Source of the DNA: Naegleria gruberi
Lineage: Eukaryota
Assembly: GCA_000004985.1 (NCBI GenBank)
Contig: GG738865.1
DNA: 64,000 nt
Direction: 5' to 3' (one strand)
In this document: one piece after another, positions 29,385-63,936 of the stretch
How positions within the stretch are numbered: position 1 is the first letter of the stretch
How the letters are laid out: each line of letters begins with the position of its first letter
Notes under the pieces: model-generated
The model's input: only the letters and a program-made list of their open reading frames with translations
What the model was told of the DNA's origin: nothing
Database searches by the model: none
Translations under genes and position numbers: made by a program

Positions 29385-29455
29385 GCATTAGTAGTGTAAC
29401 GGTATCATACCAGCCTTCCAAGCTGGTGACCCGGGTTCGACTCCCGGCTAATGCA
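29385..29455 (+). tRNA. tRNA-Gly (anticodon UCC), 71 nt
   Basis: GCATTAGTAGTGTAACGGTATCATACCAGCCTTCCAAGCTGGTGACCCGGGTTCGACTCCCGGCTAATGCA. It has a 7-bp acceptor stem GCATTAG/CTAATGC, anticodon loop CTTCCAA and T-arm GGGTTCGACTCCC. It matches the eukaryotic tRNA-Gly(UCC) consensus with no intron. Confidence 0.92.
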
Positions 29456-31878: not shown

Positions 31879-32210
31879 TTTTTTTGTTGTTATGATCAAC
31901 ATCTTCGCAAGTAAGTTCATTCTCCTTTTGTAGGCCCAAATGTTAGTGCTTGTGTATGCGATGAACTACAAATGTTGCGCTTGGTGTTGGGGTTGGAACT
32001 CATTACAAAATTGTGCCAAGACAAATGGGTCATCTTTAAAGATAGGATCATCTTTTAAATGATAATAAAATCCTCTTCGCTTACTCCTCTCGAATATTTA
32101 AGGATCGCCAAATTTCGATCTCTTTAGAGAAAATTTACGTTTTGCTTTTTTTTAAAATTGGTGTTTCCTCATCAACATTTGCATCCTCATACAATAAATC
32201 AACAATAAAA

Positions 32211-36741: not shown

Positions 36742-39700
36742 TTATTTACTATTCACAAGGTTGAATTTGGACATTGATTTTTCAATCATTTCAGAATCTT
36801 TGGAAAAAGAAATATAATCATCGGTAAATACAAATCTTGAGAAGGTATCTGAAAGATTTAGGATAACATTTTCCATCAATGTTTCAATACATTGAGAGAT
36901 TGAGCTAGTGTCAATCTCTTGACTTTCTTCACAATATTCCTTATACATTTTTGCAAATGACTTACTACAATTCGAAGGAATATTCACTTCCATTATTGAA
37001 CCTGCCTTGACATAATTTTCATAAATATGGGAAATTATTTCACAATTGAAATTTCCATTCTGTTGTTTGATATAGTGGTAGAGATATAAATTCTCAGTTG
37101 AAAATTCCTTCTTACAGAATTGTTCCAACAATGAAGAACCATGGCTATTTCCAAGTAAGGTAAATAATTCCTTATTATCTTCTTCATCTTGAAGTTTTTC
37201 GGCCCCTTTTCTGTTAAAAGTTTTGATTTTGTAAAGAATTGTCATCAATGAGCTGAATCCACCAAATACTAAAATGTAGAACAAAATATAAACTAATTCG
37301 AAAGCAAACGAAGCGTTATCATTAGGCAGTATTCTCACATAGCCTTCCTCTGACTTGTATCTCGATTCTAAAGTGCTCAAACCAAGTGAAATATTCAAAA
37401 TAAGAAAGAAGAAGCTCACAATAAACAAAATCATTTCCCATCTAAAGAATAGAGGTGAATCTTGTGTGAAAATCAAATCTTTGAAAGATCTGTTCTTTGA
37501 TTTGACACAACCAAAAATGAAATCAAAAAGGAATACACAAGTAATCAATGTACCCATGGTAAGAATCATCACTGCATATGAGATTACAACTATATATCCG
37601 AATGTTTCTAATGAAATTGCCTTCACACCAAGTAATATTACCCACAAAGTCCAATAACACAAATTTGCAACACAGAAAACGATCAATGTTCCAATGAAAA
37701 CCTTATTTGAGGTTAGAATTTTCAATACTTTCAATGTTGCATTCTTTGATTTGTCTTCTTTAATGGAAATGAGATCGTAGAAATATTTCAATAATTCGAA
37801 TCTAATAACTTGAATCAGATAGGACAAAATTGCTGTCAAATTGAGAGAATTGGCAAAGATCATGACAATGTTGGCAATTAGAGTTGCTGCCGAATCGGCG
37901 TTCTTACTCTCTTCACTTAAAATGTTTGTTTGACGAATTAATTGGTCAACCAGAACACTTCTCTGAACAATATAAATTAACACGCATTCAACAATCAATG
38001 CAATCATTCCAATATAGGGAGTTGCTAATCTAGAAGCTATTGGTTGACTCTTTCTAAATATGAATAAAGTTATCAAAACCATTAAGGAAATTATTAAATA
38101 GAAAATACCAAAACTAATTTGAGCAAAGTATGTATCAGATAATTGATTCATCACAGAAATGCTTGTTGCTACTCTCTTCTGACCAATAAATGTTGTAAAC
38201 AATGTGGTGTGATTACAAGCACATTCAATAAAACCATCTTGAACTTGGTTGACCAAACAACCTTCACTGCTCCACAATCTAGCTTGTTCATCCCAATAAT
38301 CACAACTATATTCTTCTGATTTGTTGATGGATTTAGACTCAAACGTCAATAAAATAGGTTGTTCCAAATTTGAAAGTTTTACAATTTGATTTTCTTTGTA
38401 AAATTTAAAGTCCATAGCTGAGGAAGAAGCATTTCTGGAATCATTGTAATGATTTTCACCATAATTGATCAATGAAATAGCACATTCTTTATCAAAGGCA
38501 TCGTATCTTGATAGAATTGCATTAGAATCGAATAGAACCTTATTGCTTCCTTGATTAATTGATTTTTGACTGTTTCCTGATTTGTAAATCTTGAATGATG
38601 ATATTATTAAATTAATATTCGTGCTATTGAATTCAATCTTTGGTAATTGTGATAGCGTTGAGTTCACTGACAATTCGCTAATGATTAGTATTTCAGAAAG
38701 TGAATTAGTCAACTTTCTAATATTATCAAAATCAGAAATTAAATTAGACAGTATACCAACTAGTTGTTCAATATCTTGCTTTGGGATCTTGTTTCTGACA
38801 AATCCAAATAGCTGATTCGAATATTGATAAGCAACTTTAGTCACACTTAACAAATCACCAAATTTAGATTCCAAATCGAAAATTACATCCTGATCTAAAA
38901 GGGCATATGTGTTGGTAAGGAATTTCAATAGAAACATGTTGGAAAATTGATTATTCAATAGAAGTTGTTTAACTAGTTGATTATTAAGTTCTTTTGATCT
39001 GTCAAGTGTCATATCTAAGGCAATGCTAGCAAGAATGTTAAAGTTAGAATTGCTATTGATAACTCTATTCATTAATTCAAGATAATTTCCATCAAATTTT
39101 GATATTTTGATAGAAAATGAACTTGTAATTGTCTCAACATTTCCATATTCATCTTTACCAATTATGGAAAGATAATAATTAGACTGTTTTAAAAATGGAA
39201 ATCTAACATTTTGTGTTCTATTATATGAAAAATCAGTAATTCTCATTAATTGTCCCATATAATGCACCCCAATTGCATATTGTAAAGATACAGAGCTGTT
39301 CCAACTATTGATTGTCAAATTGAATACATCTCTAATAGCAACACCTTCCAATGGAGTATTATTGGCGAACAAGTTATTAGAATCGACTGGTTTCATATAT
39401 TGATAAACTGGAATTTCTGAAGAATAGACAATTTCACTTCCCGCCAAATTTGTGAAATTCAAAGAAAATATCAAAGTTCCATATTGGTCAACTGAATTGC
39501 CATTGAATTGAACGAGAAGAGGTGATTTCAAACTAACTTTTTGTAATAAGGTTTCTTGTGCCATTGTCACCATTGAACTTTCGGTCTTTTTCAGATAAAC
39601 TTGTGAATTAATCATGTAATAAATTGACAATGAATACTTGGTTTCACATTTTGATTCACTCAATTTACAATCCTTCATCCATAAACTACTTATTTCATCC

Positions 39701-41283
39701 TTCATTTCAAGTTTTGAAACAATAAATGTATAATCAATAGTATTATTCTTATTGGAAATCAAAACTTGTGGCATTCCCAAAACTGTAAACAAATTATTTG
39801 AAATATTTGTGGGATGTGTGTTACTAGAAACAATTGTCAGGGTGAAATATTGCAGTGTGGAGTTCATTTCTGTGCCTTTCAATGCTTTTGCTTGGAATAA
39901 ATAGGTTCCAGTAAAACTTCCAGAGTTGATTACTAAAATTGGAGATTGAGCATTTGTTGAGTAATTGACCATATTGGAACAATTAAGACATTTCCATTCA
40001 TACGTAAGTAATTCAGTTAATGAACTAAGAATAACCACTTGGGTTGATTGAGAATCATCAATGGTTTCTTCATATTTGCTCAACCAAATATTAAATGTCT
40101 TTACAACAGGATCTGGTTGAGTAGAATTAATACTAGACATTGCAGAACAATCAGTTCCACTAAAACCAGCATTACATACACAATAGTTTTGTAAAATGCA
40201 TGTTCCATTACCTGAACAAACATTTGAATCATTTGACAATTTTCCAAAACAAGTAATGACATCTACATTAGGACTGTTTTGATAACATCTTGTCAAATTT
40301 TGAGTCAAAGAATATCCTGAATTGCATCTGGGTGTAAGTTTTCTTACCCTCTTTTCATCCCTATCAATGAAATAAATTTCTCCTTTCCAAACTTTAACTG
40401 AAATTGGAAATTTCAATGATGAAAGAGTTGCATCCAAATTATCAGCAGTGGAAACGTCAATTTGTGAACCTGCAATGATGGAAATGTTTCCATCTGGTTG
40501 AATTCTCTTAATGAATTTACCAGAAGAAACAAAGAGTTGACCTTGCTCATCCATAAATGAACTTGTTGGTTGGTCAATTGGTTGAAAATGAATTGTTTGA
40601 GAAGATATGTTAACAACATTAATCATGTTAATTCCAATATCTGAAATATAACAAAGTGAACCAGAAATGTGAATATCAACTGGTTGGCTCAAAGCTCCTG
40701 TGGTAATAGCACTTTCGGTCACAATTTTCTTCCAAACTTTTTTTTGTTTCGAATCCAAATAATAAATTGAAGAATCAGCAAGTCCTACTTGAATTCTAAA
40801 CACTTCATTCGATGTGTGAACTTTGGCAGAAGGTAACGTAGTTGAGTTCTCAAAAATCTTAAATACGAAACTTGTTGTCGAATAGAAACTGCCAAAATAA
40901 ATAGCATCTCCATCCATAACAATGCTAGTTAAATTTCCCAACGTGGCCTCACTCATTAAAACTCCAGGAGATGGATAACCAAATGTGGATGTACCAAAAA
41001 GTTTTTGCATGTGTCCAGTGGATTTGTTAATCTTTCGAATATTAAATTCATCCAATAGATAGATATCTCCTGTTTGTTCATGAATGGCTAATTCTTTAGG
41101 ATCATGTAACATGATTTGGGTTGCAAGAGTTGAGTTGTTTGTGTCCATGCTGCCACCACCAGCGATGGTTTCAATTGAGTAAGAAGGTGAAACATATTGT
41201 TGTGCATGTAGTGCCTTGAATGTGGTGAGTAGCATGGCTAAAGTAACTAACACAAGACACATCAAGCGTCCAATACCTTTCAT
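36742..41283 (-). CDS. Giant single-exon receptor (1513 aa), an adhesion-GPCR-like protein fused to RGS. In order it has: a signal peptide, NHL/beta-propeller-like repeats, an EGF-like module, a long extracellular region, a GPS motif, seven TM helices, and a C-terminal RGS domain.
   Basis: Signal peptide MKGIGRLMCLVLVTLAMLLTTFKALHA. EGF-like CSGNGTCILQNYCVCNAGFSGTDC. GPS CDYWDEQARLWSSEGCLVNQVQDGFIECACNHTTLFTTF immediately before TM1. Seven hydrophobic segments. RGS domain LEQFCKKEFSTENLYLYHYIKQQ...YENYVKAGSIMEVNI...FAKMYKEY. Confidence 0.8.
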   Translation of the reverse strand: MKGIGRLMCLVLVTLAMLLTTFKALHAQQYVSPSYSIETIAGGGSMDTNNSTLATQIMLHDPKELAIHEQTGDIYLLDEFNIRKINKSTGHMQKLFGTSTFGYPSPGVLMSEATLGNLTSIVMDGDAIYFGSFYSTTSFVFKIFENSTTLPSAKVHTSNEVFRIQVGLADSSIYYLDSKQKKVWKKIVTESAITTGALSQPVDIHISGSLCYISDIGINMINVVNISSQTIHFQPIDQPTSSFMDEQGQLFVSSGKFIKRIQPDGNISIIAGSQIDVSTADNLDATLSSLKFPISVKVWKGEIYFIDRDEKRVRKLTPRCNSGYSLTQNLTRCYQNSPNVDVITCFGKLSNDSNVCSGNGTCILQNYCVCNAGFSGTDCSAMSSINSTQPDPVVKTFNIWLSKYEETIDDSQSTQVVILSSLTELLTYEWKCLNCSNMVNYSTNAQSPILVINSGSFTGTYLFQAKALKGTEMNSTLQYFTLTIVSSNTHPTNISNNLFTVLGMPQVLISNKNNTIDYTFIVSKLEMKDEISSLWMKDCKLSESKCETKYSLSIYYMINSQVYLKKTESSMVTMAQETLLQKVSLKSPLLVQFNGNSVDQYGTLIFSLNFTNLAGSEIVYSSEIPVYQYMKPVDSNNLFANNTPLEGVAIRDVFNLTINSWNSSVSLQYAIGVHYMGQLMRITDFSYNRTQNVRFPFLKQSNYYLSIIGKDEYGNVETITSSFSIKISKFDGNYLELMNRVINSNSNFNILASIALDMTLDRSKELNNQLVKQLLLNNQFSNMFLLKFLTNTYALLDQDVIFDLESKFGDLLSVTKVAYQYSNQLFGFVRNKIPKQDIEQLVGILSNLISDFDNIRKLTNSLSEILIISELSVNSTLSQLPKIEFNSTNINLIISSFKIYKSGNSQKSINQGSNKVLFDSNAILSRYDAFDKECAISLINYGENHYNDSRNASSSAMDFKFYKENQIVKLSNLEQPILLTFESKSINKSEEYSCDYWDEQARLWSSEGCLVNQVQDGFIECACNHTTLFTTFIGQKRVATSISVMNQLSDTYFAQISFGIFYLIISLMVLITLFIFRKSQPIASRLATPYIGMIALIVECVLIYIVQRSVLVDQLIRQTNILSEESKNADSAATLIANIVMIFANSLNLTAILSYLIQVIRFELLKYFYDLISIKEDKSKNATLKVLKILTSNKVFIGTLIVFCVANLCYWTLWVILLGVKAISLETFGYIVVISYAVMILTMGTLITCVFLFDFIFGCVKSKNRSFKDLIFTQDSPLFFRWEMILFIVSFFFLILNISLGLSTLESRYKSEEGYVRILPNDNASFAFELVYILFYILVFGGFSSLMTILYKIKTFNRKGAEKLQDEEDNKELFTLLGNSHGSSLLEQFCKKEFSTENLYLYHYIKQQNGNFNCEIISHIYENYVKAGSIMEVNIPSNCSKSFAKMYKEYCEESQEIDTSSISQCIETLMENVILNLSDTFSRFVFTDDYISFSKDSEMIEKSMSKFNLVNSK

Positions 41284-46660: not shown

Positions 46661-48835
46661 ATGGTTTCATCACCTGCCATGATCGACCCACCTTCACCAA
46701 CACAAAATGATACACAGAGTAGTGTATCACAATTTCCGGAGGAGCCCGAATGGTTGAAAACAAGACAGTTTTTAACGCATGATTTTTTAAAAAAGCAAAC
46801 AGGTGAATTGAATGTTGCTCAGGGTTTTTCTCTTGAATCACTCCCATCAAAAGTACAGGAATATATTATTATTGAAGAATTATTAAATTGTTTGATGGGA
46901 TTTGAAGGAAAATATATTAGATGTGTTTCACAAATTGAAACCGATCAAGATTCGTATATGACCACTGAAGAAGGTCTTCCGATCACTGATATCACATTAT
47001 TGGAAACTTACAAATATTCTCTTCTTTGTGAAATCGACTCTTCACTCCATGATATGGTAAATAGAATATTACCACTTTGTGAAAAACATACAAGAGTGTC
47101 TAGTTTTTTGGAAAAAAGATCGGGTTATGGTAATGGTCTTGTTTGTCAGGCATTTTGCTCGGCACTGAGAGCTTTGGAAAAGGAATACCTTATGTTTATT
47201 AATCAATTGGATTTACTCTTCAAACAAGATCAAATATCTCTACAAAAATTATACTATCACCTTCAAACAGGTGCTTGGAAAACAATTGAAATTTTGGATA
47301 GATTGGTTGGAGAAATATTGAAGGATAATGCAAAAGGAGGTTCTTTATTGAATGTGCTTCAAAATGTTTCCAGAGTAATTAGTTCAGATGAGAAAACTCA
47401 AAAGTTATTCAATTTTATTTTTACCAAATCGTGTGCTCCCTATTTTGAAATGATAGAGTCGTGGATTTTTAAGGGTGAAATTGAGGATTTATACGAAGAA
47501 TTTTTCGTAGAAGAAAATAAGAATGTAAGAAAGGAACAGCTACTTGAAGATTTTAACTCATTATATTGGGATTCCAAATACTCCATAACACGAGAGGTGC
47601 CATTCTTCTTAACAAAGCTTAGTGATAAGGTTTTAACTTGTGGTAAATATTTGAGTTTACTCAAAGAATGTGGCCAGCGAGTGGATAAACGTATTGTAGA
47701 TAGAATTAATTTTGCTGATGGGAAAGCAATATCAATAATTGAAGAAGCTCACAATCATGCTGCCAAGCAAGTTTTGGATTACTTCTTTGGAGATGTCAAA
47801 GTAATGGATCGTTTAAAGTCCATTAAGTATTATTTTTTATTCGATCATGGTGACTTTTTCGTGCACTTTATGGACACAGCAGAACAAGAGAATGAACTTG
47901 CCAAGAAGAGTACGGATGTTTCGTTATCGAAACTTCAATCCTCGATAGAATTTGCTGCCAAAACTTGCTCGATACCCAACGACGAATATAAGGATAATCT
48001 CACCTGTAGTTTGAAACCTATGAATTTGGCCAACTTTTTAAGTATTATCAAACAGCTTTCCTCATCCAACAGACTGGATGCAGCAGTGCTAGAACAGCAA
48101 CAATTACAAGAATCTCCAATTGAGGGCTATGAAGCATTCTGTTTAGAATATAAGGCAGAGTGGCCAATGTCTCTCATCATCAATAGGAAGAATATTACCA
48201 AATATCAAATTTTATTCAGACACTTATTCTGCTTTAAGTATGCAGAAAGATGCCTCTGTAATACTTGGATTAATCACAAATTTTCAAAGGAGCTGAAATT
48301 GGGGACATCCTTCTCAACATTTTATGCATTAAGGCACAAGATGATACATTTCATTCAACACTTTTTATCATATGCTCTCATAGAAGTTGTTGAAAAGAAT
48401 TGGGTAGAAATGGAAAAGAAAATCAAAACAGCAACAAGTATAGATGAAGTTATCAAGAGTCACGATCAATTTTTGGATTCTTCACTGAATGGCTGTTTAG
48501 TTTCTTCCACTGATGCCTTCAAGTGCTTGACCAAGCTTGTATCTTGTTGCAACAGTTTTTCAAAATACATGAATCAATTCTCCACTGTAATTAGTAATAA
48601 TTTGAATGAAGATGTTCAGGAATCAGATGAACTAACAGATAAATTCGAAAGAAGACGTGAAAGAATAGAACAAGCATCTGAACTGGCTAAAAACACAGTC
48701 CAAGATGACAATTATAGACGAGCCATTTTAAAATTCACCCAAGTATTCGAGACAACCCTTAATCAACTCAGATCTCATACAGCTCACATTTTTACATTAT
48801 CCATGAGTTTTGACAAGGAATCAACTCACTATTAA
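46661..48835 (+). CDS. Gamma-tubulin complex component (Spc97/Spc98/GCP family, GCP2-like), 724 aa, single exon
   Basis: Conserved GCP N-terminal grip region (QEYIIIEELLNCLMGFEGKYI) and C-terminal grip (DYFFGDVKVMDRLKSIKYYFLFDHGDFFVHFMD...). The length and architecture are typical of the family. Confidence 0.8.
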   Translation: MVSSPAMIDPPSPTQNDTQSSVSQFPEEPEWLKTRQFLTHDFLKKQTGELNVAQGFSLESLPSKVQEYIIIEELLNCLMGFEGKYIRCVSQIETDQDSYMTTEEGLPITDITLLETYKYSLLCEIDSSLHDMVNRILPLCEKHTRVSSFLEKRSGYGNGLVCQAFCSALRALEKEYLMFINQLDLLFKQDQISLQKLYYHLQTGAWKTIEILDRLVGEILKDNAKGGSLLNVLQNVSRVISSDEKTQKLFNFIFTKSCAPYFEMIESWIFKGEIEDLYEEFFVEENKNVRKEQLLEDFNSLYWDSKYSITREVPFFLTKLSDKVLTCGKYLSLLKECGQRVDKRIVDRINFADGKAISIIEEAHNHAAKQVLDYFFGDVKVMDRLKSIKYYFLFDHGDFFVHFMDTAEQENELAKKSTDVSLSKLQSSIEFAAKTCSIPNDEYKDNLTCSLKPMNLANFLSIIKQLSSSNRLDAAVLEQQQLQESPIEGYEAFCLEYKAEWPMSLIINRKNITKYQILFRHLFCFKYAERCLCNTWINHKFSKELKLGTSFSTFYALRHKMIHFIQHFLSYALIEVVEKNWVEMEKKIKTATSIDEVIKSHDQFLDSSLNGCLVSSTDAFKCLTKLVSCCNSFSKYMNQFSTVISNNLNEDVQESDELTDKFERRRERIEQASELAKNTVQDDNYRRAILKFTQVFETTLNQLRSHTAHIFTLSMSFDKESTHY

Positions 48836-48862
48836 GCAAATTTATTAATAATAAATTTAAAA

Positions 48863-50038
48863 ATGGCGGCAAAATCTACAGTTTCAAAGTTAGAAAAAAT
48901 GTCTAGTGATGAGTATGATGAACCACTCTCTCCAAACACTCTCTACAGGGAGCAGTTGGGAAGTATGTTTGATACCTACAAATCAATGCAAGAGCAGAAG
49001 GAAACAATCACGTTGGAGGAAATAAGAGAAGTCATACAATTATCAAACCTGAATATTTCGATTGTGGATTTTACTGAGGCATACAAGATGAAGATCGGAA
49101 TGGATAGGAGTGCAACTAGGGAAGAATTTATTTCGATACTGAAGGATATTCTATCACCACCTTCCGATGCTGATTCAAGTCCTAAAACAGCATCACCTAG
49201 AATTAATTCCTCATTGGATTTTCAAGAAAAATGTATTATGGATGTAAAGAGAGAAAAACATTTGACGGAACATAAGAGATATATTAGGGATCACCCTTTA
49301 TTGCATCAAATATTGTTTGATTTCTTGAATACTACTTTGATTTATCAGCCGGATGATGTCTTTTCGTTTGCCTCAGAATATTTCGAAAAGCTGTCTGCAG
49401 TTTCAAGAAAAATCAAGTCAAACAAGAAGGTTCTTATAGTTTCTGGAGCTGTTGTATCGTCAAGCAATTTTGCATTCAAGGTGCAATCAACTTTCCCTCA
49501 TGACATTGAAAGAGCTGTGAGCTATACAACAAGAAAACCTAGGTCAGACGAAGTGGAAGGAGTTCATCACTTCTTTGTGCCTTCCAATGAAACAATGAAA
49601 GAAATGATGAAAGATCACATGTTTTATGAAATTGTACAGATAGGAAATGATTATTATGGAAATGCAAAGAGTGAAATTGATTCTATACTGGAAAAAGACA
49701 AGGTTTGCCTTGTGTTTGCTAACTTGAAAGGAGTTCAACAATTACAAATGATTTTCAAAGAACAAAATATCAATACTGCCACAGTTTATGTCAAACCTGT
49801 CACCACAGCCAAGTATTCAACAAGTATAACAAAGCTTTCAAACGAAGAAATGAGTTTCGATTATTGTTCAAACAGAGTTGCCATGATAGAAGAGGAGATT
49901 AAGCAAGATTTATACAGTTTCTATGATTTTGTAATTGCTTTTGATGATATCTATATGCCTGAAAGTGAAATACCACTAGAGTATGAAATGCCAAATAATC
50001 TTTACAATTTCATTTACAAATTTATTAGCAATAAATAA
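48863..50038 (+). CDS. RIIa (PKA regulatory-subunit dimerisation/docking)-domain protein with a C-terminal guanylate-kinase-like domain that has a degenerate P-loop
   Basis: RIIa-like DHPLLHQILFDFLNTTLIYQPDDVFSFASEYFEKL. GK-like SYTTRKPRSDEVEGVHHFFV...FYEIVQIGNDYYG, but the Walker A position reads VLIVSGAVVSS rather than GPSGVGK. Confidence 0.6.
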   Translation: MAAKSTVSKLEKMSSDEYDEPLSPNTLYREQLGSMFDTYKSMQEQKETITLEEIREVIQLSNLNISIVDFTEAYKMKIGMDRSATREEFISILKDILSPPSDADSSPKTASPRINSSLDFQEKCIMDVKREKHLTEHKRYIRDHPLLHQILFDFLNTTLIYQPDDVFSFASEYFEKLSAVSRKIKSNKKVLIVSGAVVSSSNFAFKVQSTFPHDIERAVSYTTRKPRSDEVEGVHHFFVPSNETMKEMMKDHMFYEIVQIGNDYYGNAKSEIDSILEKDKVCLVFANLKGVQQLQMIFKEQNINTATVYVKPVTTAKYSTSITKLSNEEMSFDYCSNRVAMIEEEIKQDLYSFYDFVIAFDDIYMPESEIPLEYEMPNNLYNFIYKFISNK

Positions 50039-50039
50039 T

Positions 50040-51284
50040 TTAAACAGATTCATTGTTTTGAGTGTTTGGATCTGACTCAGTAGTTGTATTACCGCCATCA
50101 GTTAAGAAGCTTCTAACATTTGTTCTGCAGATTGGGCACTTATCAATTCTTGAAAAACATTCATGACAAACACACTTATGTTTGCATGGTAAAATAGTAA
50201 TATCTCTTGGTTCAGAGAAACAAACAATACATTCCTCAACTTCGTTTTCATCATTCTCATCGGCACCGTATACTTCTTCCAATTCAAATAATTCTGACTC
50301 AGTTTGAGCAAATATTTTAACAACATTTCCTCTATAATATACACCTTCTTCCGAGTTTTCATATCTCTTAAAATTACAAATCACGTAAAGTGATTGGAGT
50401 TCTCTATCGTAATCAAGTGAGCTATCTTCTCCCTCATATCTTTTTAAGGTATCTGATGAATTAGTTGGTTTCAATACAATAACAAGTGGAAGTTTAGAAT
50501 CGGATTGGATTGTTTCATCTTCGTCAGCAAGTAAATCACGAGTAAGTTGATTACCCAATCTTTCTTCCTCTGTATTCTGAATTTCAGGTGCTGTTGTTTC
50601 TACTTGGCCTTCAGCATTTTCAGCTTCCTCGTTATTGGTATTATTATTTGTTTGAGGAGTTTCTCTCACAATTAGTGATGTAAAATAATTATCAACTACG
50701 TTTTGATCAATCATTTCGTCCACAGGCATTTCAAATGATTGGTTTAATCCCTTATCAAAATAAATAAGATCACTCTTTTCTACATATTCCTCATATGTCA
50801 AAAGTCTATTCATATCTATTTGAGAAAGAGGAGTTTCATAAACTGATGCTGTAATATCATCCACTTGATTTTCATTCACATCCAATAAACCTCTTTCCAT
50901 ATTTTCGTCATCCTCCAAATGTTGATCTTGTTGATAATTTTCCTTTCCTTTCTCCTTTGCTTCATTTACAATTTTTTCAAAGTTATCCTTAAAAGGTTGT
51001 AAAATTTTTCTCTTGAAAGATAATTCTGAAACACCCCAAAATAATTGAACACTTGATTTGACAAGAGTGTCAAAATTAAACTTTACACCATTCAATTTTC
51101 TTTGATCATCTTGAGCAGTAATGCATGAAAAAGTATTCTTCTTCAAATGAACAGTGCCATTAACTCTATTTACAGTTAAAACAGGTGAAGTAATACTTCC
51201 TCTAAAAAGTGCTTGGACATACGAACGAATATTTCCTTCTCCCCACATACTTTCAATATTATCAAAATTTGCAATCTTTTCCAA
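50040..51284 (-). CDS. RING-type E3 ubiquitin ligase, MGRN1/LOG2-like (C3HC4 RING at the C-terminus). One or more 5' exons probably lie at 51314-51682.
   Basis: RING CIVCFSEPRDITILPCKHKCVCHECFSRIDKCPICRTNV aligns with the MGRN1 RING. An upstream conserved region reads LQSLYVICNFKRYE. The ORF is open upstream of its first ATG with a stop just before it, so it needs a spliced 5' exon. The candidate exon MKSEHALFSS... lies at 51314-51682, but I could not resolve the splice sites. Confidence 0.65.
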   Translation of the reverse strand: MEKIANFDNIESMWGEGNIRSYVQALFRGSITSPVLTVNRVNGTVHLKKNTFSCITAQDDQRKLNGVKFNFDTLVKSSVQLFWGVSELSFKRKILQPFKDNFEKIVNEAKEKGKENYQQDQHLEDDENMERGLLDVNENQVDDITASVYETPLSQIDMNRLLTYEEYVEKSDLIYFDKGLNQSFEMPVDEMIDQNVVDNYFTSLIVRETPQTNNNTNNEEAENAEGQVETTAPEIQNTEEERLGNQLTRDLLADEDETIQSDSKLPLVIVLKPTNSSDTLKRYEGEDSSLDYDRELQSLYVICNFKRYENSEEGVYYRGNVVKIFAQTESELFELEEVYGADENDENEVEECIVCFSEPRDITILPCKHKCVCHECFSRIDKCPICRTNVRSFLTDGGNTTTESDPNTQNNESV

Positions 51285-52107
51285 TTAATGATTATTTGTT
51301 CCTATGATTATTATTAGATAATATAACATACATTCACAATATTAAATGCTCCTGATCGGATAACATAATACAAATAAGAATTTGAAAATGTAGTTTTCAA
51401 TAATCTAAAAAACCAATACAACAAGAATACATAAATCATCATTATAAATAAATTATACATTTCTGGACTGAAAACATTAGGATAAATAACATCCGATGTT
51501 GATGAAAATATGAACCACCAACTTGCAGAAGTAGTACTAGTCATTTCTCCACCAGCAGTATTACTCAACGAAGCTCCTCCTCCAACAATACTATTCGTTA
51601 CATCCCCTAGCCAACTACCAGAAGAAGCTCCTCCAACAGCCTGATTCAGAGAGGATGAGAAGAGAGCGTGCTCTGATTTCATTTTTTATCTTTGAATCTA
51701 ATGTTGTATTAGAACCTCATCATTGATGATAAGAAACTATCCTAACTGTAGACTGATGTTCCGATTGATCTATTGATGGAGAAATTATGTTGCTGAAGAA
51801 TAATTTAATGTTTTTGATGAAGAAGATGAAGCAGCCAAATTTTGATGAATCAAACAAAAGGCTTGATTTTGCAATAACAATAAAAATAAAATTAGATTCA
51901 AAAAAAAATATTCAACCACACATTGTTCCGTTTTGTTGTTGTTACTATTTTTAGCCTTGAAAATCACATTGTAGCTTGTACAAATTGTTAAATAATAATA
52001 CATCATACTCTCTGATCATCGTATTGTAGTGATATAGAGTACCTAGGAGTAAATTGATTTAATATTCCGATTGATTTTTGTATCATACAAAATATAGATT
52101 AAAAAAG

Positions 52108-53885
52108 ATGTCAGATAGTACTGTTATTTCTGCAGCACTTCCTACTCAAAAGGATTTGACTAACTCTGAAGCCATCATGGAAATTTTAAAGAAGGAAAAT
52201 AGATTCCCATCAGATGAAGAAAATAAGAAAAGAGAAGAAGTTCTTGCAAAATTGGATGGCATTATTAAAGGATGGGTTAAACAAGTGTGCCTGAAACAGG
52301 TATGTTGCTATAAAGTGAATATAAAACTAAATTATTTAATAATAATAATAGGGTTTGTCTGAGGAATTTGTATCATCAGCTGGATCCAAGTTGGTAACTT
52401 TTGGTTCCTTCCGTTTGGGAGTACATGGTCCTGGTGCGGATATTGATACGTAAGTTTAATTTGAATAGCAACAGTAGTGACATTTCATAATTTAGATTGT
52501 GCATTGTTCCTAACATGGTTGAAAAACACCACTGTTTTACAGATTTGCATGATATTTTAAAACTAAGACCTGAAATTGCAGAACTTAAACCAGTTCCAGA
52601 TGCATATGTACCTTTGATTACCATGGTTTTTGATGGTGTAGAAATTGACTTGTTGTTTGCTAGATTATCTAGAACTGTTATTCCTGCTGATTTGGATATT
52701 TTGGATGAATCAAATTTGAAAGATGCAGATGATGAAACTCAACGTAGTTTGAACGGTCCTCGTGTTGCTGATCAAATTTTGAAACTAGTTCCAAATCAAG
52801 AAAATTTCAGAACTACCTTGAGATGTATTAAATTGTGGGCAACCAGAAGAGCAATTTATGGTAACATTGTAGGATATTTGGGAGGTGTTGCTTATGCCAT
52901 TTTAACAGCAAAGATTTGTCAAATGTATCCAAATGCTGCCCCTTCAACACTGTTAACAAAATTCTTTACCGTCTACCAACAATGGAACTGGGGAAAGGTA
53001 CCTGTATTATTAAGACCAATCGAGGAAGGAACTCTTAATTTTAAAGTTTGGAATCCAAAGCTTAATCCAAGAGATAAACAACACTTAATGCCAATCATTA
53101 CACCATCATATCCATGTATGAATTCCACATTTAACGTTTCAAAAACAACTTTAAAGGATATGAAGAATGAATTTGAAAGAGGAGCATCTATTACACAAAA
53201 GGCAGAGAATGGACTTGAAAATTGGGAAACTTTATTTGAAGCAACAGACTTCTTTGTAAGATATAGTAATTACTTACAAGTTGAAATTAATACATCAAAC
53301 GAGGTTGACCACCTTAAATGGATTGGTTTCATTCAATCTAAAGTAAGATTTCTTATTCCAAAGTTAGAAGCAGTTCCTGGATTAACGATCCATATTTATC
53401 CAGACTATTTCCACAATAACCAAGGAGGAGCTTTTTCTTCATATTTTTATATAGGATTAGAATATAAACAAACCAAACCAGGAGAAGGATCAGTAGTAAA
53501 TCTTGCATCTTGTATCGCTGAATTTGAGGAATTACTTACTTGGCCAGATAAGAATGAAAATATGGAAAAACCAAAGATTCAACCAATCAAGAGAAATGCA
53601 ATTCCAGAATTTGTTATTTCAAAGAAGAAAAAGAAGGAACTCATGAAAAAGAATAAGGCACAAAAGAGAAAGGCAGAACAAGACGACGAAAAGAACAAAC
53701 CAAGTGAAGAAACGGAAGCTACTGCAACAGCCACAACTTCGACAGATGGAACTACAGAGAATGGTGAGTCCGCAGCAAAGAAGGCAAAGGTAGACGAAAC
53801 TCCAGCAGTAAAGAGAGAACATAAGGTTGAACTTTTATTGGGTGATGACGATGACGATTTACTTGCTTTGTACTCAAAAAAATAA
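52108..53885 (+). CDS. Poly(A) polymerase (nucleotidyltransferase domain, central domain, RNA-binding domain, then an acidic K/E-rich tail); join(52108..52299,52352..52449,52496..53885)
   Basis: Catalytic motif KLVTFGSFRLGVHGPGADIDT|LCIVP spans intron 2. VPDAYVPLITMVFDGVEIDLLFARLS matches canonical PAP. The introns are 52 nt (GTATGT...AATAG) and 46 nt (GTAAGT...TTTAG) with consistent phases. Confidence 0.88.
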
Positions 53886-53920
53886 ATAAAGTTTGTTAGT
53901 GTTTTCAACAAGAGAGGATT

Positions 53921-56900
53921 TTATTTGTCATCCAAGTCCACATTTTGAGCATCTAGATTAATGTTTTCAGATTTCGATTTTCCAAAGAATAATTCTTTTA
54001 AACTGAATGTTGACCTCCTGTGAGTTGAGGCAGTGGATGGTTTCCGTATTGTTGCATATTTTGAGGCAGAGGAACCTGAGCTGTCCAACTCTACATCTAA
54101 TTCTGCTGTCGAACCTGGTGATGAGAAATATTCGTCTTCCTCAGTCTTCTTTGGTTTTGATCCGCCTCCTCTTAATGGTCTTCTTACCTTAGAAGAAGTA
54201 TTTTCAATTTCGATTTGTGGTGGTGGTACTGTTACAATTTTGGTATGCTTCAAAATATCAAGTTCTCTTTTGAGCGTGTTGATAGTATCATTCAATTTGG
54301 ACCTTTCTTCGACGAACATGTCTGCCTCTTTTTTGGCTTTTCTTGTTTGTTCAACAATTATATTGTTAAGCTCTGTAAGTCTTTCTTCCTTCATTCTGAT
54401 CTTCTTCTCAGCCAGTGATAATTTCATTATAATCTCAGAGTTTTCATTATGAACTTGTGAAAGGTTAACAGTTACTTGTTCCAAGTTTCTTTCTAACCAT
54501 TCAATTTTTCTTGAATATTTCTTGATAATATTTTGATTAGATAAAGTATTGTACTTGTCTGTAATTTCATCTAGTTGTACTTCTAGTTCAATAACTTTAT
54601 CAACTCTGTTTGATAAATCTTCGAGAAGGTTATCTCTTTCAGATTTCAGATTCTTGTTGGTAACTTCCAGTTCTCTTATTCTTTCTAAAGCTTCACTAAG
54701 CCTTTCACTTTCTGGAACTTGAGTAAAAACTGATGAAGGTGCTTCTTCATTGGTTACAACAGGTTCTGTAAAGTAATCCGAGTCATCAATAGCAGTTGGT
54801 GTTGGTGGAATTTGAAGTACTACTTCTTGTGGAGGAGATGGCAGCATGAACTCTGCTTCATTGAAATCAGTGTCACCAGTTTCATCACCATCATCATCAG
54901 AATCGTCGTCAGATTCGTCCATTTCTTCTTGGATATTCTTTAAATCAGTTTTAATTTTTCTCAAAGTTAAGAAAGACTCTCTTCTCTTTCTCAATCTGTC
55001 TCTGTCTGATTCCTTTTTAGCGGTCTTTGTTATCTTTTTGAACTTTTTATCAATAAAGTTCATTACAAGCTCAAGGTCTGGATCGTCTTGTTTGGATTGA
55101 AGTGTTAAGAGTTGGATTTTTGATTCATTGAGTTGCCTACAGTAATGTTCCATTTGCTTCTTGTGTTCTTCAACTTCAGAATCTTTTTCTTTGACCACAT
55201 ACTCCAACTTTCTGCGCTCTTCTTTCATAGAGTCTTTCACTTCCTGGCATTCATTGGTTTTTAGTTGAATAATTTTCTCTAAATCATTTCTATAACTTTC
55301 AGCTGTTGCCAAGTAGTCAGATTTCTCTTTGAGCTGTTCTTTTAAGATGTGAATGTCTTCCAATGATTGCGCACCCTCTTCTTTAGCTTGATTAATTTCA
55401 TCCTTCAATTGAATGTTTTCATCCATAATCCTATTTCTGAATTGTTTTTCTTCTACCAATTCCTTCTCCAAAAGTACACACTTCTCCCTGTATTTGGAAA
55501 GGGTAGGTAAAAGTTCGTTAAGCTTTTCTTCAAGTTCTTGACGCTTTAGATCTGCTTCCTTTGCGTCAGATTCTTTGGATGTAGTTTCAGTTGGATCTTG
55601 AATTTTGATTTCGGTTTTGATTCCTCCTTTCTTGTAAATTTTCAGTTCTTCTTCTATACCATTTGTATATTCCTTCAACTCTCTGATTTCCTCCTTAGCT
55701 TTGTCCAATAATTTCTGAAGCTCCTTGGCAGAAAGTTCTCTATTTACCTTAGGCTTGTTCTTAATATTCTTAGCTCTAAAACCGAATCTAAGGGTGGAAA
55801 GTGTTTCATCCTCGTTATAGGAACTCATAGAACAGTTTATAATCAATGTTGTTCTAGAGTTACCTCCCAAAGAGTCTTGTAATAATCTTGTGAGTTTTGA
55901 ATCTCTGTATGGCACAAATTTGGACTATTTTCACAACATTAATATTATTTTGAAGTCTTAAACTTACCACACCATCTGTTAAGGCATTAATAACCATACC
56001 CAGTGCTGACAAGGATTTGTTAATATTCTTTGCTTCTTCAAGTGTTTGGCCTGATGCTCCGGTTTTCTTGACCTTTTCTGAACCAGCCAAATCTACCAAA
56101 AATAATTTACCAGTTTTTGAATCTAAATTAACCAAGTGCTTTTGTCCAATAGTGATAATAAAGATGCTGTGAGATCGTGAGCTTTCATCGTTCATTCCTT
56201 TGATCGAGTAAGATAATTAATATCTTTTAAACTTACTTGTAGAGGAAACAACACGATTTCCAGCTCCAACTTTCAATAAATTATACACTTCTTCCACACT
56301 TGTGACATATTCCTCAGTTGCTCCTTTAATATATACACCTCTTCCACTTTCTCTGTCTTCCTTAATCTTTAAATCTTGGTGATGTGCTATTCAAAGTTGT
56401 TAATACAATACTATTATAATTACTCAACATACGATCCAGTAAATCTCTTATTTTTTCCAAATAAATTTCAATATAAGATATTTGGATTGTAAACTCAATA
56501 TCAGGATCTGAATTTTCCACTCTATCAAATATTTCCTCAATCATTCTTGGAATTAATCCTTTCAAATTTGAATCAGTGCAATATCCCTTATGATCTTCAT
56601 TTGGTCCCATCATGGTATATGATTTACCTATAAGCAATTATTAGCATTTTCATGAAAGAACCAAAGTCAACATACCACTACCAGTTTGACCGTATACAAA
56701 TACAGTTCCCTATTAAGCGTTTAGTATTGTTTTATAAAACAACATCAACCTACGTTATATCCCTTAAAAATATCTAGAATGGATTTATAATGATGATGAA
56801 GAAGAATACATACCCTCAACAACAGGTTTTCCTACTACATTAAAAAGGTCACCCTGTTTGGAACCACTCTTGAAAATATGATCGAACGTAAAGTCATGCT

Positions 56901-57096
56901 TTCCGTTTTTGTTCTATTAAATCAAATGATGATGAATATTTTCTTCTCAAAATACAAAGATGATAATTACATTTAATTTACATGTTTTTCCATCAAAATC
57001 AACTACCTCTCCGCCACCCATCTGCTTTTCAAGCGTATTCAAGGGTCTAAAACGACAAACGACCTGAATATTACTTCCTCCAAATTCCTCTGTCAT
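53921..57096 (-). CDS. Kinesin-1 heavy chain (N-terminal motor domain in about 6 short exons, then a single-exon coiled-coil stalk and tail at 53921..55915)
   Basis: Motor motifs are spread over the minus-strand exons: [60 protein letters not shown]. The neck and stalk then start [29 protein letters not shown], followed by a long heptad coiled coil. ATG at 57096 (minus). Introns are about 40-105 nt with GTAAGT/GTATGT donors and were not all mapped exactly. Confidence 0.85.
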
Positions 57097-57364
57097 TTTT
57101 TTAAGGGTTGTTGGTTACGGAATTTACTTTGCTACGAAATTTTTCTAAGGAGTTGGAACAAGTCCATTCATCATCATAATTAATTTGATTTGGTTTGATG
57201 CTCAAAGTGTTAGTGTTGTAATAGAGAATATTCTCGAAATGAATTGTATCTCTGCCATGATGTGATTTGTCTGAACTGTTCCAATGTCGAATTTAATTTG
57301 CAGATTTTTCTGACATTCAATAATGTCTAGTTTTACAAATTGTAGTAAGAAAGATTCAGCTCTC

Positions 57365-58714
57365 TCAGAGGGATTGAGTTTTAGAACCTAAAATTACTGC
57401 TCGTTTAGCTCCTGTTACACTTGGGATATTGGAAACCCTCTTCTTTTCATAGAGATAGGCAAGGAGGGCAAATAACATTCCCTCTTTAGCATTAGAATCT
57501 AATGCTTGTCCGTCCTCAAGCTTTTCATGAGAATAGATTGAAATAGGTCTTTTAAAGGTAGAATTCAAGAGGTGAGAAAGTGTTTCCATTAAGAAAGAGT
57601 TCTTTTGGCCTCCACCTGCAACAATAACATCAAAATCATCGATATTCAACTTGTTGCAAACCATTTCATAAGCCTTTACAATGCTATAGGCAGTAAAGTC
57701 TGTAAATGTTCTAGCGACGATACAAAATAGTGGATCAGATTTGTTAGATGTTCTTAATTCCAAAGGTTCCAATAATTTCTCAACTTGATCTCTGCCAAAA
57801 AGTTCTCTTCCTGTAGTTTTTGGGAATGGCATTTCTAAATAATTTCCATAAATTTTCAATAGTTTGTCAAATAATGATGTATCGGCAGCAAATGTACTCC
57901 TAGCCATATCACCATTCTCATCCATTTGAAGTTCTCCACCAGAAATAACTCTAACGCAGTCATCAATTAAGGCATTTCCTGGACCAGTATCAAAAGAAAC
58001 TGTCAACGAAGAAGCATCTTCCACCTGAATATTTAGAGGAGGAACAAAGGTAACATTTCCAATTCCACCAATATTTTGGATTGCCCTCCACTTGGTTGGA
58101 TGCCTTAACATTAAAAAGTCAACTAGTAAAATTCATATGACAATTCTTTTTGAATTATAATACGTACATATGGAAGTCAATGGAGCACCTTGTCCACCCA
58201 GAGCTACATCACTAGTTCTGAAATTTGAAATAACTGGTAATCTTAAATATGCAGAAATTTCGCCAGGTTCTCCAATTTGTAATGTTGAACGAACTATAGA
58301 TTCGTCCAATGATTCACCTTCTCTGAATTTGTTACTTTCCACTTGATGATAAATAGTTTGACCATGGGATCCTATCACATCAATACTCTGCAAAGCAATA
58401 TTATTCTTTAAACAAGTATTTTCAATAGCTAATGCAAAATGCTTTCCAATCAAGGTATTCATTTCACAAAATTCCTTTGCACTCAATTGATTTGATCGCA
58501 TCAACTTGAAAATTCTATCTCTCATATTCGATTCCCAAGGAATTGATTCAAATGCTACTACTTTCATGATCGGAATGGGCAATTCATGATGTTCAATAAA
58601 TGTACTTCTTGTAGTAGTATCGTCACTAATTTCACAAATAACAACATCAATGGCATCAACTGATGTTCCAGAATTTACTCCAACACAAATTAATTTATCA
58701 TCACTCATTTTCAA
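57365..58714 (-). CDS. anmK: Anhydro-N-acetylmuramic acid kinase (AnmK/UPF0075, levoglucosan-kinase family)-like protein; complement(join(57365..58122,58168..58714)) with a 45-nt spliceosomal intron
   Basis: N-terminal GVNSGTSVDAIDVV (matches G-x-MSGTS-DGID), GSHGQTIYH, LQIGEPGEIS, GGQGAPL|TSIFD..LRHP (split by the intron), NIGGIGNV, FDTGPGNALID, PKTTGRELF, AGGGQKNSFLM. The intron GTACGT...TTTACTAG is in phase 1 and joins in frame. Confidence 0.85.
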
Positions 58715-58852: not shown

Positions 58853-60241
58853 ATGAACAGACTCATTCTCTGTGGCAATCATCACCAACATCATTGCCTG
58901 TTGTCGGCTTCTTTGAGTCGATCATCACCACTCTTAAAATTTGCTAGTAACAAGTGGAATATGAATAGGAATACAGGACGTAATTTTTCTTCTTCCTTCA
59001 GAGTTATGGATGTTACCTTCTCTCCGGAGGAATTACAAGTTTTGAAGGAATTGAGACAAAGTATGGATGCACCAGAACCAGAGAAGGATAATCGCGTGAA
59101 AAAAGGTTCTAAAGGAGACTTTTTACCTGATCCTGACTTTGATTATAGCAATCTTTCTCCTGATGAATTTCTTGAAGCCTTGAGAAATAAAAAACCAAGA
59201 GAAAATGAAGACGAACTCCAAGGTAGAGACTTGGAAAAGGATAAAAGAATGTTTGATTTACTTGAAGAATTGTTAAACAATCCAGAACTTGACCCAACTG
59301 AGGAACAAATTGAGGAACATAAAAGAAGAGCAACAAGATCTCTTTTGGAAATGGATGAAGACCAACTCACAAATGGACAATTACCAATTATTTCATATGA
59401 TGAATTGAATAAGAAATTTTATAGAAAGGTATATATTGAAGAAACACAAACAAAGGAAAATACTCCAGAATTCAGAGTTCGTATTGGTCAAGAACAACTT
59501 TTACGAACAACCACCAACAAGGTAGTAACAGTTCCATCAAAAGAAATTGCTGCTGTTGCTGCTGGAGAATGGGAATTGCAAGAAGAATATGTAAGACCTG
59601 CCACCCTTCCTTTCACAGAATTACTTTGCAGAATTGAGGATGTTAAACGTGAAATTGATTTCTCAGTTAGCTACAATATGAAGAAAACCATTCATGGATT
59701 TTTCGATGGAGAATTTGTTTGCTTACGTCAAGGAATGGGAGATGAAAAATTCACAAATTCAATCAAGGAACATTGGGATCCTCTTGTTCAATGGTTCAAT
59801 AAGGAATTTAACACAGAACTTGTAGTTCTTGGAGAAGATAGTAGTTTTGCTGATGATCCAGCACAAGAAGATGCTCGTATCAAGTTTATTGAACGTTATA
59901 CCACCTCCGAAGGTATAAGATTATTTAAAAAGACAGAAAGTGTAAAATATTTGTTTGACAGAATGTCACCATCTGGTTTGGTTTTATTGAATGCAATGGT
60001 TGAAGTTACAGGATCTGTAGTTATCGCATCTGCTTTATATGCTGGAAGAATTAATGCTAGACAAGCTGCATTGGCAACTCAATTACCAGTCAGAGAACAA
60101 ACAAATACTTTCGGATTAGTTATGGGTGAACATGATTTGCAATTTGCTGAACAATTTTGCAAGCTCTCAGCTTTGGAATTGCTTTTGGAAATTCATCCAC
60201 TTTCTAGAGACGTTTCTGATTCATATAGTAAGGTACTTTAA
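58853..60241 (+). CDS. ATP12: ATP12/ATPAF2 (F1-ATPase alpha-subunit assembly factor 2) with an N-terminal mitochondrial presequence
   Basis: KFYRKVYIEE...RVRIGQEQLLRTTTNKVVTVPSKEIAAVAAGEWELQEEYVRPATLPFTELLCRIED matches the ATP12 family core. The presequence-like N-terminus is MNRLILCGNHHQHHCLLSASLSRSS. Confidence 0.8.
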   Translation: MNRLILCGNHHQHHCLLSASLSRSSPLLKFASNKWNMNRNTGRNFSSSFRVMDVTFSPEELQVLKELRQSMDAPEPEKDNRVKKGSKGDFLPDPDFDYSNLSPDEFLEALRNKKPRENEDELQGRDLEKDKRMFDLLEELLNNPELDPTEEQIEEHKRRATRSLLEMDEDQLTNGQLPIISYDELNKKFYRKVYIEETQTKENTPEFRVRIGQEQLLRTTTNKVVTVPSKEIAAVAAGEWELQEEYVRPATLPFTELLCRIEDVKREIDFSVSYNMKKTIHGFFDGEFVCLRQGMGDEKFTNSIKEHWDPLVQWFNKEFNTELVVLGEDSSFADDPAQEDARIKFIERYTTSEGIRLFKKTESVKYLFDRMSPSGLVLLNAMVEVTGSVVIASALYAGRINARQAALATQLPVREQTNTFGLVMGEHDLQFAEQFCKLSALELLLEIHPLSRDVSDSYSKVL

Positions 60242-62505: not shown

Positions 62506-62557
62506 CAAGTTTTAAATCAAAATTTTTAATCGAATTTTGTTAACATAAATAATGTAA

Positions 62558-63936
62558 TTAATATTCCTCTCCTGTTGCCTTATAAATCTTGCAAGTATTA
62601 TCTTTTGAACCTGTAATAATTGTGTCACCTTCATAATTGAAGGCGCAACTGAAAACTTCATCTTTGTGTCCTCTAAGAACTTGCAAACAATTTCCAGTCT
62701 TGGCATCCCACAATCTACAAGTCTTATCATTAGAAGCAGTAATAATCATATTACCTTGAGGATTGAATGAAACCTTGGAGATTTCAGCATGATGTCCATA
62801 ACAGACAGCAAGACACTCTCCTGTCATTGTATCATAAATTCTGGCAGAACAATCTTGGGAGGCTGTTGCTACTCTTGTTCCAGTTCCATTGAAAGACACA
62901 TCTATTACTTCATCATTATGTCCAGTTAATGTTCTTACACATGTTCCTGTATGCATACTCCATAATTTACAAGTCTTATCGATAGAACTTGAAACAACCA
63001 TATCACCTGAAAAGTTGAATTGAGTTGCTGAAACTTCGCATTCGTGGCCATGGAAATTATAAACACATTCTGCTGATCTAACATCCCAAACACGTACTGT
63101 ATTGTCGAATGATCCAGTGACAATAAAGTTACCAGCATTATTGAAACTCATACTGATAATTTCCTTATTGTGTCCTAATAAAGAATATACTTCCTTTCCA
63201 GTTTCCACATCCCAAACCTTTGCTGTTGTATCAATTGAGGCAGTTGCAATCAAGCTGCTATCTGGATTGAAAGAGACGCAAACAATTTCCAATTCATGCC
63301 CTCTAAGAGTATATTGACATTCACCAGTTTCTGCATCCCACAATTTACATGTTTTATCAAAAGATCCTGTAACAATCTTATCACCGAATGGATTATTGAA
63401 TGCAATAGCATATACTACGTTTTTGTGCCCTTCTAAACTCTTTAATTCCAATCCTGTTTCTGTATCCCATATTTTACAAGTTCTGTCATAGCTTCCAGTG
63501 ATAAATCTATCTCCTGATTTGTTGAAAGCACAATTGGTAAGAGGTAACAAGTGAGCCTGGAGTGATTTCTCTTCTTTGAATTTCTTGCATTTAAGGGATG
63601 ACAACTTGTTTACCAACTCTTTAATATGAATTAGTTTTCAAAGCCTTTAATTTTAAGTACTTACTTTCAACGAGTTGTTTAATTTGTTCAGTCTTTCCGC
63701 TCGGAATTAAAGGTTCGCTGGCAACAATATCTTCGGCCACTGTATTTACATCAGAACTGTAAAATACAAAAACAAATAATACAACACAAATTAAAACAAG
63801 ATGAAATCATTAATACATACAACTCAGTTAAATCTAATAAATCAATAGTCTTTGTACCCTCTCTGCCATTAGATCGTTCATATTCAAGTATAATGCCAGG
63901 TGGATAATATCTGAGCATAAATTTCTTCAGCTTCAT
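62558..63936 (-). CDS. DAW1: DAW1/ODA16/WDR69, a dynein-arm assembly factor with WD repeats; complement(join(62558..63618,63665..63756,63824..63936))
   Basis: N-terminus [20 protein letters not shown]...TKTIDLLDL aligns with human DAW1 [69 protein letters not shown] aligns with [34 protein letters not shown]. Eight WD repeats continue to the C-terminus. Intron 2 is 46 nt with a GTAAGT donor. Intron 1 is about 67 nt and needs an unusual GTTGTA donor to keep frame, so it is uncertain. Confidence 0.85.

Follow-up and report, generated by a model that had tools for sequence, protein, structure and literature searches.

A gene at 62558-63936 in a stretch of Naegleria gruberi DNA raises the question of whether an apparent orthologue of the ciliary protein DAW1/ODA16 is what it seems to be and, if so, what it predicts about the cell that carries it. 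We call the window the whole stretch that was analysed, 64,000 nucleotides in length, from strain NEG-M of this heterolobosean amoeboflagellate. By reading the reverse complement and testing splice combinations, we recovered on the minus strand an intact three-exon DAW1/ODA16 gene with a product of 422 aa, and 62558-63936 coincides precisely with its coding sequence from ATG to stop. A single splice model gives an open frame, with the reading frame intact and canonical GT-AG introns, and tblastn of the 422-aa product against the 64-kb window finds this one locus only. The features of the locus are as follows.

62558..63936, minus strand: complete DAW1/ODA16 coding region in 3 exons, ATG at 63936-63934 and TAA at 62560-62558
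63821..63936, minus strand: exon 1, 116 nt, amino acids 1-38 plus 2 bases of codon 39, with a GTATGT donor directly downstream (tblastn match 63936-63820)
63757..63820, minus strand: intron 1, 64 nt, GTATGT...TTTTACAG (ending ACAG), phase 2, junction gap-free against 5mzh and 5nnz
63665..63756, minus strand: exon 2, 92 nt, from the third base of codon 39 to the first base of codon 70, collinear with the ODA16 N-terminal domain
63619..63664, minus strand: intron 2, 46 nt, GTAAGT...ATTAAAG, phase 1, with the sole in-frame AG acceptor and a gap-free alignment
62558..63618, minus strand: exon 3, 1061 nt including the TAA stop, encoding the end of the N-terminal domain and the entire WD40 propeller
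63587..63936, minus strand: region of the ODA16-type N-terminal domain, aa 1-80, with both introns inside it, 47% and 51% identical to Chlamydomonas ODA16 and human DAW1, respectively
62561..63586, minus strand: region of the eight-repeat WD40 beta-propeller, aa 81-422, with Pfam WD40 in 8 stretches and 62-66% identity to the solved DAW1 propellers
62506..62557, no strand: 52-nt spacer between the stop codons of the converging genes for Mo25 (plus) and DAW1 (minus)

The product aligns from end to end with both solved DAW1/ODA16 structures, in agreement with the preliminary description, which had called it collinear with the animal and algal proteins. In a phmmer comparison with all PDB chains, it matches Chlamydomonas reinhardtii ODA16 (5mzh) at 608.7 bits (E 4.8e-182, query residues 2-418) and human DAW1 (5nnz) at 575.9 bits (E 4.4e-172, query residues 1-415), E-values far outside chance. 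Pairwise identity is 62.7% to the algal protein (415 aligned residues, one single-residue gap) and 59.7% to the human protein, also known as WDR69, over 414 aligned residues from Met1 of both (MKLK...LRYYPPGI); between the algal and human proteins it is 62.2%. The splice model is validated by these alignments, which are free of gaps at the exon junctions and hold one single-residue gap each. N. gruberi DAW1 is of the same length class as Chlamydomonas ODA16 and shares its arrangement of an N-terminal domain and an eight-repeat WD40 propeller, but it ends without the short C-terminal extension seen in the algal protein (chain of 452 vs 422 aa), and its gene, as a further difference, has two short introns.

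Ahead of the propeller, the product carries the N-terminal domain (about residues 1-80, with limits taken from PMC11879689), including the conserved RYYPPGI motif. This N-terminus, described earlier as diagnostic, reads as had been reported, and in an alignment of 28 sequences (the product and 27 homologues) its R9, Y10, P12, P13 and G14, together with D32, are invariant or at least 90% conserved. For the remainder, Pfam finds propeller families only, with eight WD40 repeats, and inspection reveals seven GH...WD units preceded by a first AH...WD unit at aa 91-121, at a spacing of ~42 residues; the C-terminal propeller is thus predicted to be eight-bladed. The named top matches in the protein collection searched are DAW1/WDR69 from animals, oomycetes, green algae, flatworms, insects and a kinetoplastid, at 45-61% identity, and a metagenome scan adds 118 environmental DAW1-encoding loci at 47-66%. 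Trypanosoma and Naegleria both belong to the supergroup Discoba, and the kinetoplastid homologue, from Angomonas, is a partial protein with 57% identity to N. gruberi DAW1. The T. brucei ODA16, an Arl3-released IFT cargo adaptor (PMC11373600), is by implication a member of the same family. DAW1 is the best match in the forward direction, both by phmmer and among the named database matches, with the reverse direction coming only from the literature, where Chlamydomonas ODA16 gives E=0 against Naegleria (Desai et al., 2015). On its sequence, then, the gene is a DAW1/ODA16 orthologue and not a WDR5 or PRP19.

What such a gene predicts can be read from its pattern of loss in other lineages. ODA16, like ODA8, has been lost where outer arms are absent and also where outer arms are kept without the use of IFT, and persists only in organisms that combine outer arms with IFT-dependent assembly (PMC4361367). 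A DAW1 gene therefore predicts both outer arms and IFT-dependent assembly, and the reasoning of the preliminary description, which went from DAW1 to motile cilia with outer dynein arms, was sound and slightly stronger than it was put. N. gruberi has the outer arms and the IFT-dependent flagellar assembly with which DAW1 occurs, in a flagellum of the 9+2 type. Its amoebae are without basal bodies or flagella and acquire 9+2 flagella upon transformation (Dingle and Fulton, 1966; PMC2107041), bearing out the flagellated life stage that had been proposed; flagellates have two basal bodies and two flagella (PMC9928731), and each flagellum grows by evagination from the basal body and is complete within ~10 minutes of the appearance of basal bodies (PMC2107041).

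The molecular record is likewise in print. Desai et al. (2015; PMC4361367) compared Chlamydomonas proteins with N. gruberi at NCBI and took reciprocal best hits as orthologues. Their Supplementary Table 1 marks reciprocal best hits by shading, and its E-values for Naegleria include those of ODA16 (E=0), the outer-arm proteins HC-gamma (E=0) and IC2 (4e-128), DC2 (2e-86), ODA8 (6e-39), IFT122, IFT140 and IFT172 (each E=0), IFT88 (4e-180), IFT52 (2e-132) and IFT46 (5e-58). These entries support the outer dynein arms claimed from DAW1, and with them the checks proposed in the preliminary description are already in print; none of these tabulated ODA, IFT, DC2 and ODA8 genes lies within the 64-kb window. 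The flagellate stage with outer arms was a correct inference that is already published, and the substance of the DAW1 finding was all previously known, with Naegleria ODA16 tabulated since at least 2015. DAW1 in N. gruberi is a textbook ciliary marker in a well-known amoeba-to-flagellate organism, of little import beyond quality control: from the raw sequence of a single DAW1 gene it was possible to predict, correctly, that the organism has a flagellate stage and outer dynein arms, and the literature adds IFT-dependent assembly to that prediction.

It is very probable that the locus encodes the single-copy N. gruberi orthologue of ODA16/DAW1 (WDR69), with its N-terminal domain set on an eight-bladed propeller, and that this protein can be expected to serve as a cargo adaptor during flagellate conversion. 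Our literature search found no experiments on the N. gruberi DAW1 protein, and we infer its binding partners and its use in differentiation from Chlamydomonas and Trypanosoma. On that model, as the amoeba turns flagellate, the propeller would carry pre-assembled outer dynein arms, the cleft between the N-terminal domain and the propeller would dock on the N-terminus of IFT46 in anterograde IFT trains and, inside the flagellum, Arl3-GTP on the opposite face of the propeller would free the adaptor. ODA16 consists of an N-terminal domain (residues 1-80) atop a C-terminal propeller, and IFT46 binding needs both (PMC11879689). The Chlamydomonas N-terminal domain makes up half of the IFT46-binding cleft, a positively charged inter-domain groove into which IFT46 residues 23-44, with their Nxxx(D/E)E motif, fit as a peptide with a Kd of ~1 uM; association with outer-arm dynein requires the propeller, to whose opposite face Arl3 and IDA3 bind, displacing IFT46 (PMC11879689). 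In Chlamydomonas flagella, the IFT46 N-terminus is needed to bring in ODA16 and outer arms (PMC5576905), and in T. brucei it is Arl3-GTP that takes ODA16 off IFT trains (PMC11373600). Since the N. gruberi product has both domains in well-conserved form, its most likely role would be to load pre-assembled outer arms onto IFT-B trains while the two flagella rapidly grow out. The completion of the Naegleria flagellum within ~10 minutes of basal-body appearance (PMC2107041) could suit synchronous timing of ODA16-dependent dynein import, and Naegleria may be of modest interest as a synchronous system for that purpose.

The best-surviving alternative accepts the orthology and questions only the docking partner: a true DAW1 orthologue might aid outer-arm import or maturation without docking on IFT46, through another IFT-B subunit or by acting mainly in the cytoplasm. 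Human DAW1 does not directly bind human IFT46, despite a conserved cleft, because the IFT46 Nxxx(D/E)E motif has been lost in mammals (PMC11879689); IFT46 is thus not a universal docking partner, and mammals seem to use another IFT-B subunit to dock ODA16. Zebrafish Daw1, furthermore, sets the timely onset of motility, and its loss delays motility rather than abolishing it (PMC9270974). The IFT46 motif is nonetheless conserved in T. brucei, Tetrahymena, zebrafish, Xenopus and C. elegans (PMC11879689), a breadth which suggests that IFT46 docking is likely ancestral and its loss apparently restricted to mammals. The published table lists a Naegleria match to IFT46 at 5e-58 (PMC4361367), and the two ODA16 domains required for IFT46 binding are both found, conserved, in the N. 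gruberi product. We therefore regard an IFT46-independent adaptor as improbable in N. gruberi and retain IFT46-docked loading of outer arms as the preferred reading.

A far weaker objection concerns the orthology itself, namely that the gene could encode a generic WD40 protein of the WDR5, PRP19, LIS1 or FBXW7 type, resembling DAW1 merely through its repeats. The propeller by itself is indeed unspecific: Pfam lists 53 propeller families for the product, and a search of 1.84 billion representatives with the exon 3 ORF, which holds the propeller only, returns ~430,000 proteins at E<=1e-3, headed by giant multi-propeller proteins at 25-46% identity, and was set aside as uninformative on orthology or on the Naegleria entry. 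Against this, the next-best PDB chain after the two DAW1/ODA16 structures, the cyanobacterial WD40 protein 2ymu, reaches only 387.9 bits (query residues 84-420), with an FBXW7 chain at ~256 bits and WDR5 at ~193, so that 609 and 576 bits stand against 388 and the DAW1/ODA16 chains lead the best generic chain by ~190-220 bits; the best match is accordingly neither WDR5 nor a PRP19-like protein. The generic single-propeller proteins (WDR5, LIS1/PAFAH1B1, FBXW7 and 2YMU) share the WD40 repeats of the propeller, at 193-388 bits, but have no counterpart of residues 1-82, and most of the WDR5, LIS1 and FBXW7 matches in the PDB span only part of the propeller. No PDB chain other than DAW1 covers query residues 1-82, generic matches beginning at ~83, and the N-terminal 80 residues can be aligned to DAW1/ODA16 only, at the 47-51% identity given above. 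In published searches with ODA16, moreover, organisms without a real orthologue have best WD40 matches of 2e-53 (Dictyostelium), 3e-52 (Physcomitrella), 3e-26 (Plasmodium) and 3e-25 (Caenorhabditis), as against E=0 for Naegleria (PMC4361367). The generic reading, which we rate as hardly credible, is effectively refuted already.

That the gene is a decaying or unexpressed relic copy is equally hard to credit, for although no public protein entry for the N. gruberi DAW1 product was recovered, its 422-codon frame is uninterrupted with canonical GT-AG introns, its ~60% identity to algal and animal orthologues is as high as that between those orthologues, it is the one copy that tblastn finds in the window, and N. 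gruberi builds functional flagella.

The missing entry merits a closer look, as the protein database search with the DAW1 product returned no DAW1 from Naegleria or Willaertia at all, and the exact 422-aa product is absent from the collection searched, while the same collection does contain N. lovaniensis and W. magna homologues of the Lon and guanylate-kinase-like (GK-like) neighbours. It is conceivable, if unlikely, that current heterolobosean annotations omit the DAW1 gene or carry a seriously faulty model of it, in which case ciliary phylogenetic profiles based on proteomes would misscore Heterolobosea for ODA16. A gap in the database searched is the simplest and likelier cause, and for N. 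gruberi itself an annotation gap is made less likely by the published BLASTp E=0 (PMC4361367). The gene order GCP/Spc97, GK-like, RING finger, poly(A) polymerase, kinesin and AnmK is shared between window positions 46661-58714 and N. lovaniensis PYSW02000037.1 (L081). Past AnmK, N. lovaniensis has a guanylate-cyclase-like gene where N. gruberi has ATP12, Rad52-like, Mo25 and DAW1, and no syntenic DAW1 occurs in N. lovaniensis within 10 kb of the conserved block; neither DAW1, WDR69 nor ODA16 is mentioned in the supplements of the Naegleria pangenome paper. Four other ORFs in the window (8642-10363, 29830-31920, 48863-50038 and 58853-60241) are single-exon and complete-looking and have no exact counterpart in the protein collection, whereas neighbouring ORFs have one; the cause is either reference gene models with other starts or introns, or incomplete coverage of the N. 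gruberi genome in the collection.

Two supporting strands of the preliminary description are weak. The first was an RIIa-domain protein at 48863-50038 (plus strand), offered as further support for a flagellum. The RIIa match (PF02197) of this 391-aa protein scores 21.0 bits (E 2.7e-4, aa 149-177), below the Pfam gathering threshold of 22.4 bits, although its RIIa-like motif, RDHPLLHQILFDFLNTTLIYQPDDVFSFASEYFEKL, is invariant in five heterolobosean homologues, and an RIIa-like fold in a docking-domain protein is plausible. Only five homologues are detectable, from Naegleria, Willaertia or environmental contigs, and a protein so restricted to heteroloboseans is not a recognised ciliary marker and contributes little to the case for a flagellum. 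It does have a clear guanylate-kinase-like domain (82.5 bits), whose P-loop appears degenerate, with VSGAVVSSSNFAFK in place of GxxGxGK[ST], which suggests a non-catalytic scaffold.

The second was a TACTAAC branch signal in the introns: the window holds 4 such sequences against 4.7 expected by chance, and the DAW1 introns have none. The rest of the intron description stands, as the introns are short (64 and 46 nt in DAW1, 40 nt in Mo25) and GTAAGT and GTATGT donors are present; the 40-nt intron in the neighbouring Mo25 gene has a GTTAGT donor. Mo25 and DAW1 converge with 52 nt from stop to stop, so that their 3' UTRs must be very short or overlapping.

The origin of the DNA had been narrowed to a chytrid-like fungus or a flagellated protist, and dictyostelids had been excluded. 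The source, N. gruberi NEG-M, is no dictyostelid, and the protist part of the proposal was right, for an organism that is an amoeba for most of its life, whereas the chytrid-like fungus was not. The window itself speaks clearly for this source. Three of its ORFs are exact N. gruberi NEG-M proteins (XP_002677727.1, XP_002677728.1 and XP_002677827.1, all from a single 820,293-bp contig), and the Lon protease ORF at 5596-8619 matches the N. gruberi lon protease at 100% identity along its whole length, as against 74% to N. lovaniensis and 69% to Willaertia magna. G+C is 30-36% throughout, and long ORFs are densely packed. A ciliate-type non-standard genetic code was ruled out, given that TAA, TAG and TGA all end long ORFs, and a parabasalid origin was rejected because the parabasalid intron motif is missing from the window. 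No rRNA was found in the window, where a tRNA-Gly(TCC) at 29385-29455 (plus strand) is the sole Rfam or ARAGORN match in 64 kb, and the taxonomy rests on the exact protein matches.

Several other genes in the window deserve mention. The multi-exon kinesin gene at 53921-57096 (minus strand) encodes a motor end and neck that resemble conventional kinesin-1 and not the IFT motor kinesin-2, and this kinesin-1-like appearance adds no evidence for cilia. A 1513-aa single-exon protein at 36742-41283 (minus strand), the exact XP_002677827.1, has an EGF-like module, a GPS motif (GPCR proteolysis site) and, after these, hydrophobic segments; its C-terminal stretch looks RGS-box-like by eye (LLEQFCKKEFSTENLYLY), with no RGS match from Pfam at E<=1e-5. 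Finally, at 57365-58714 (minus strand) lies a homologue of bacterial-type anhydro-N-acetylmuramic acid kinase (AnmK, PF03702), read as two ORFs that are presumably split by an intron. An AnmK is unusual for a eukaryote without peptidoglycan and may possibly reflect an old gene transfer; in N. lovaniensis its counterpart keeps the syntenic position (L081 19109-20599).
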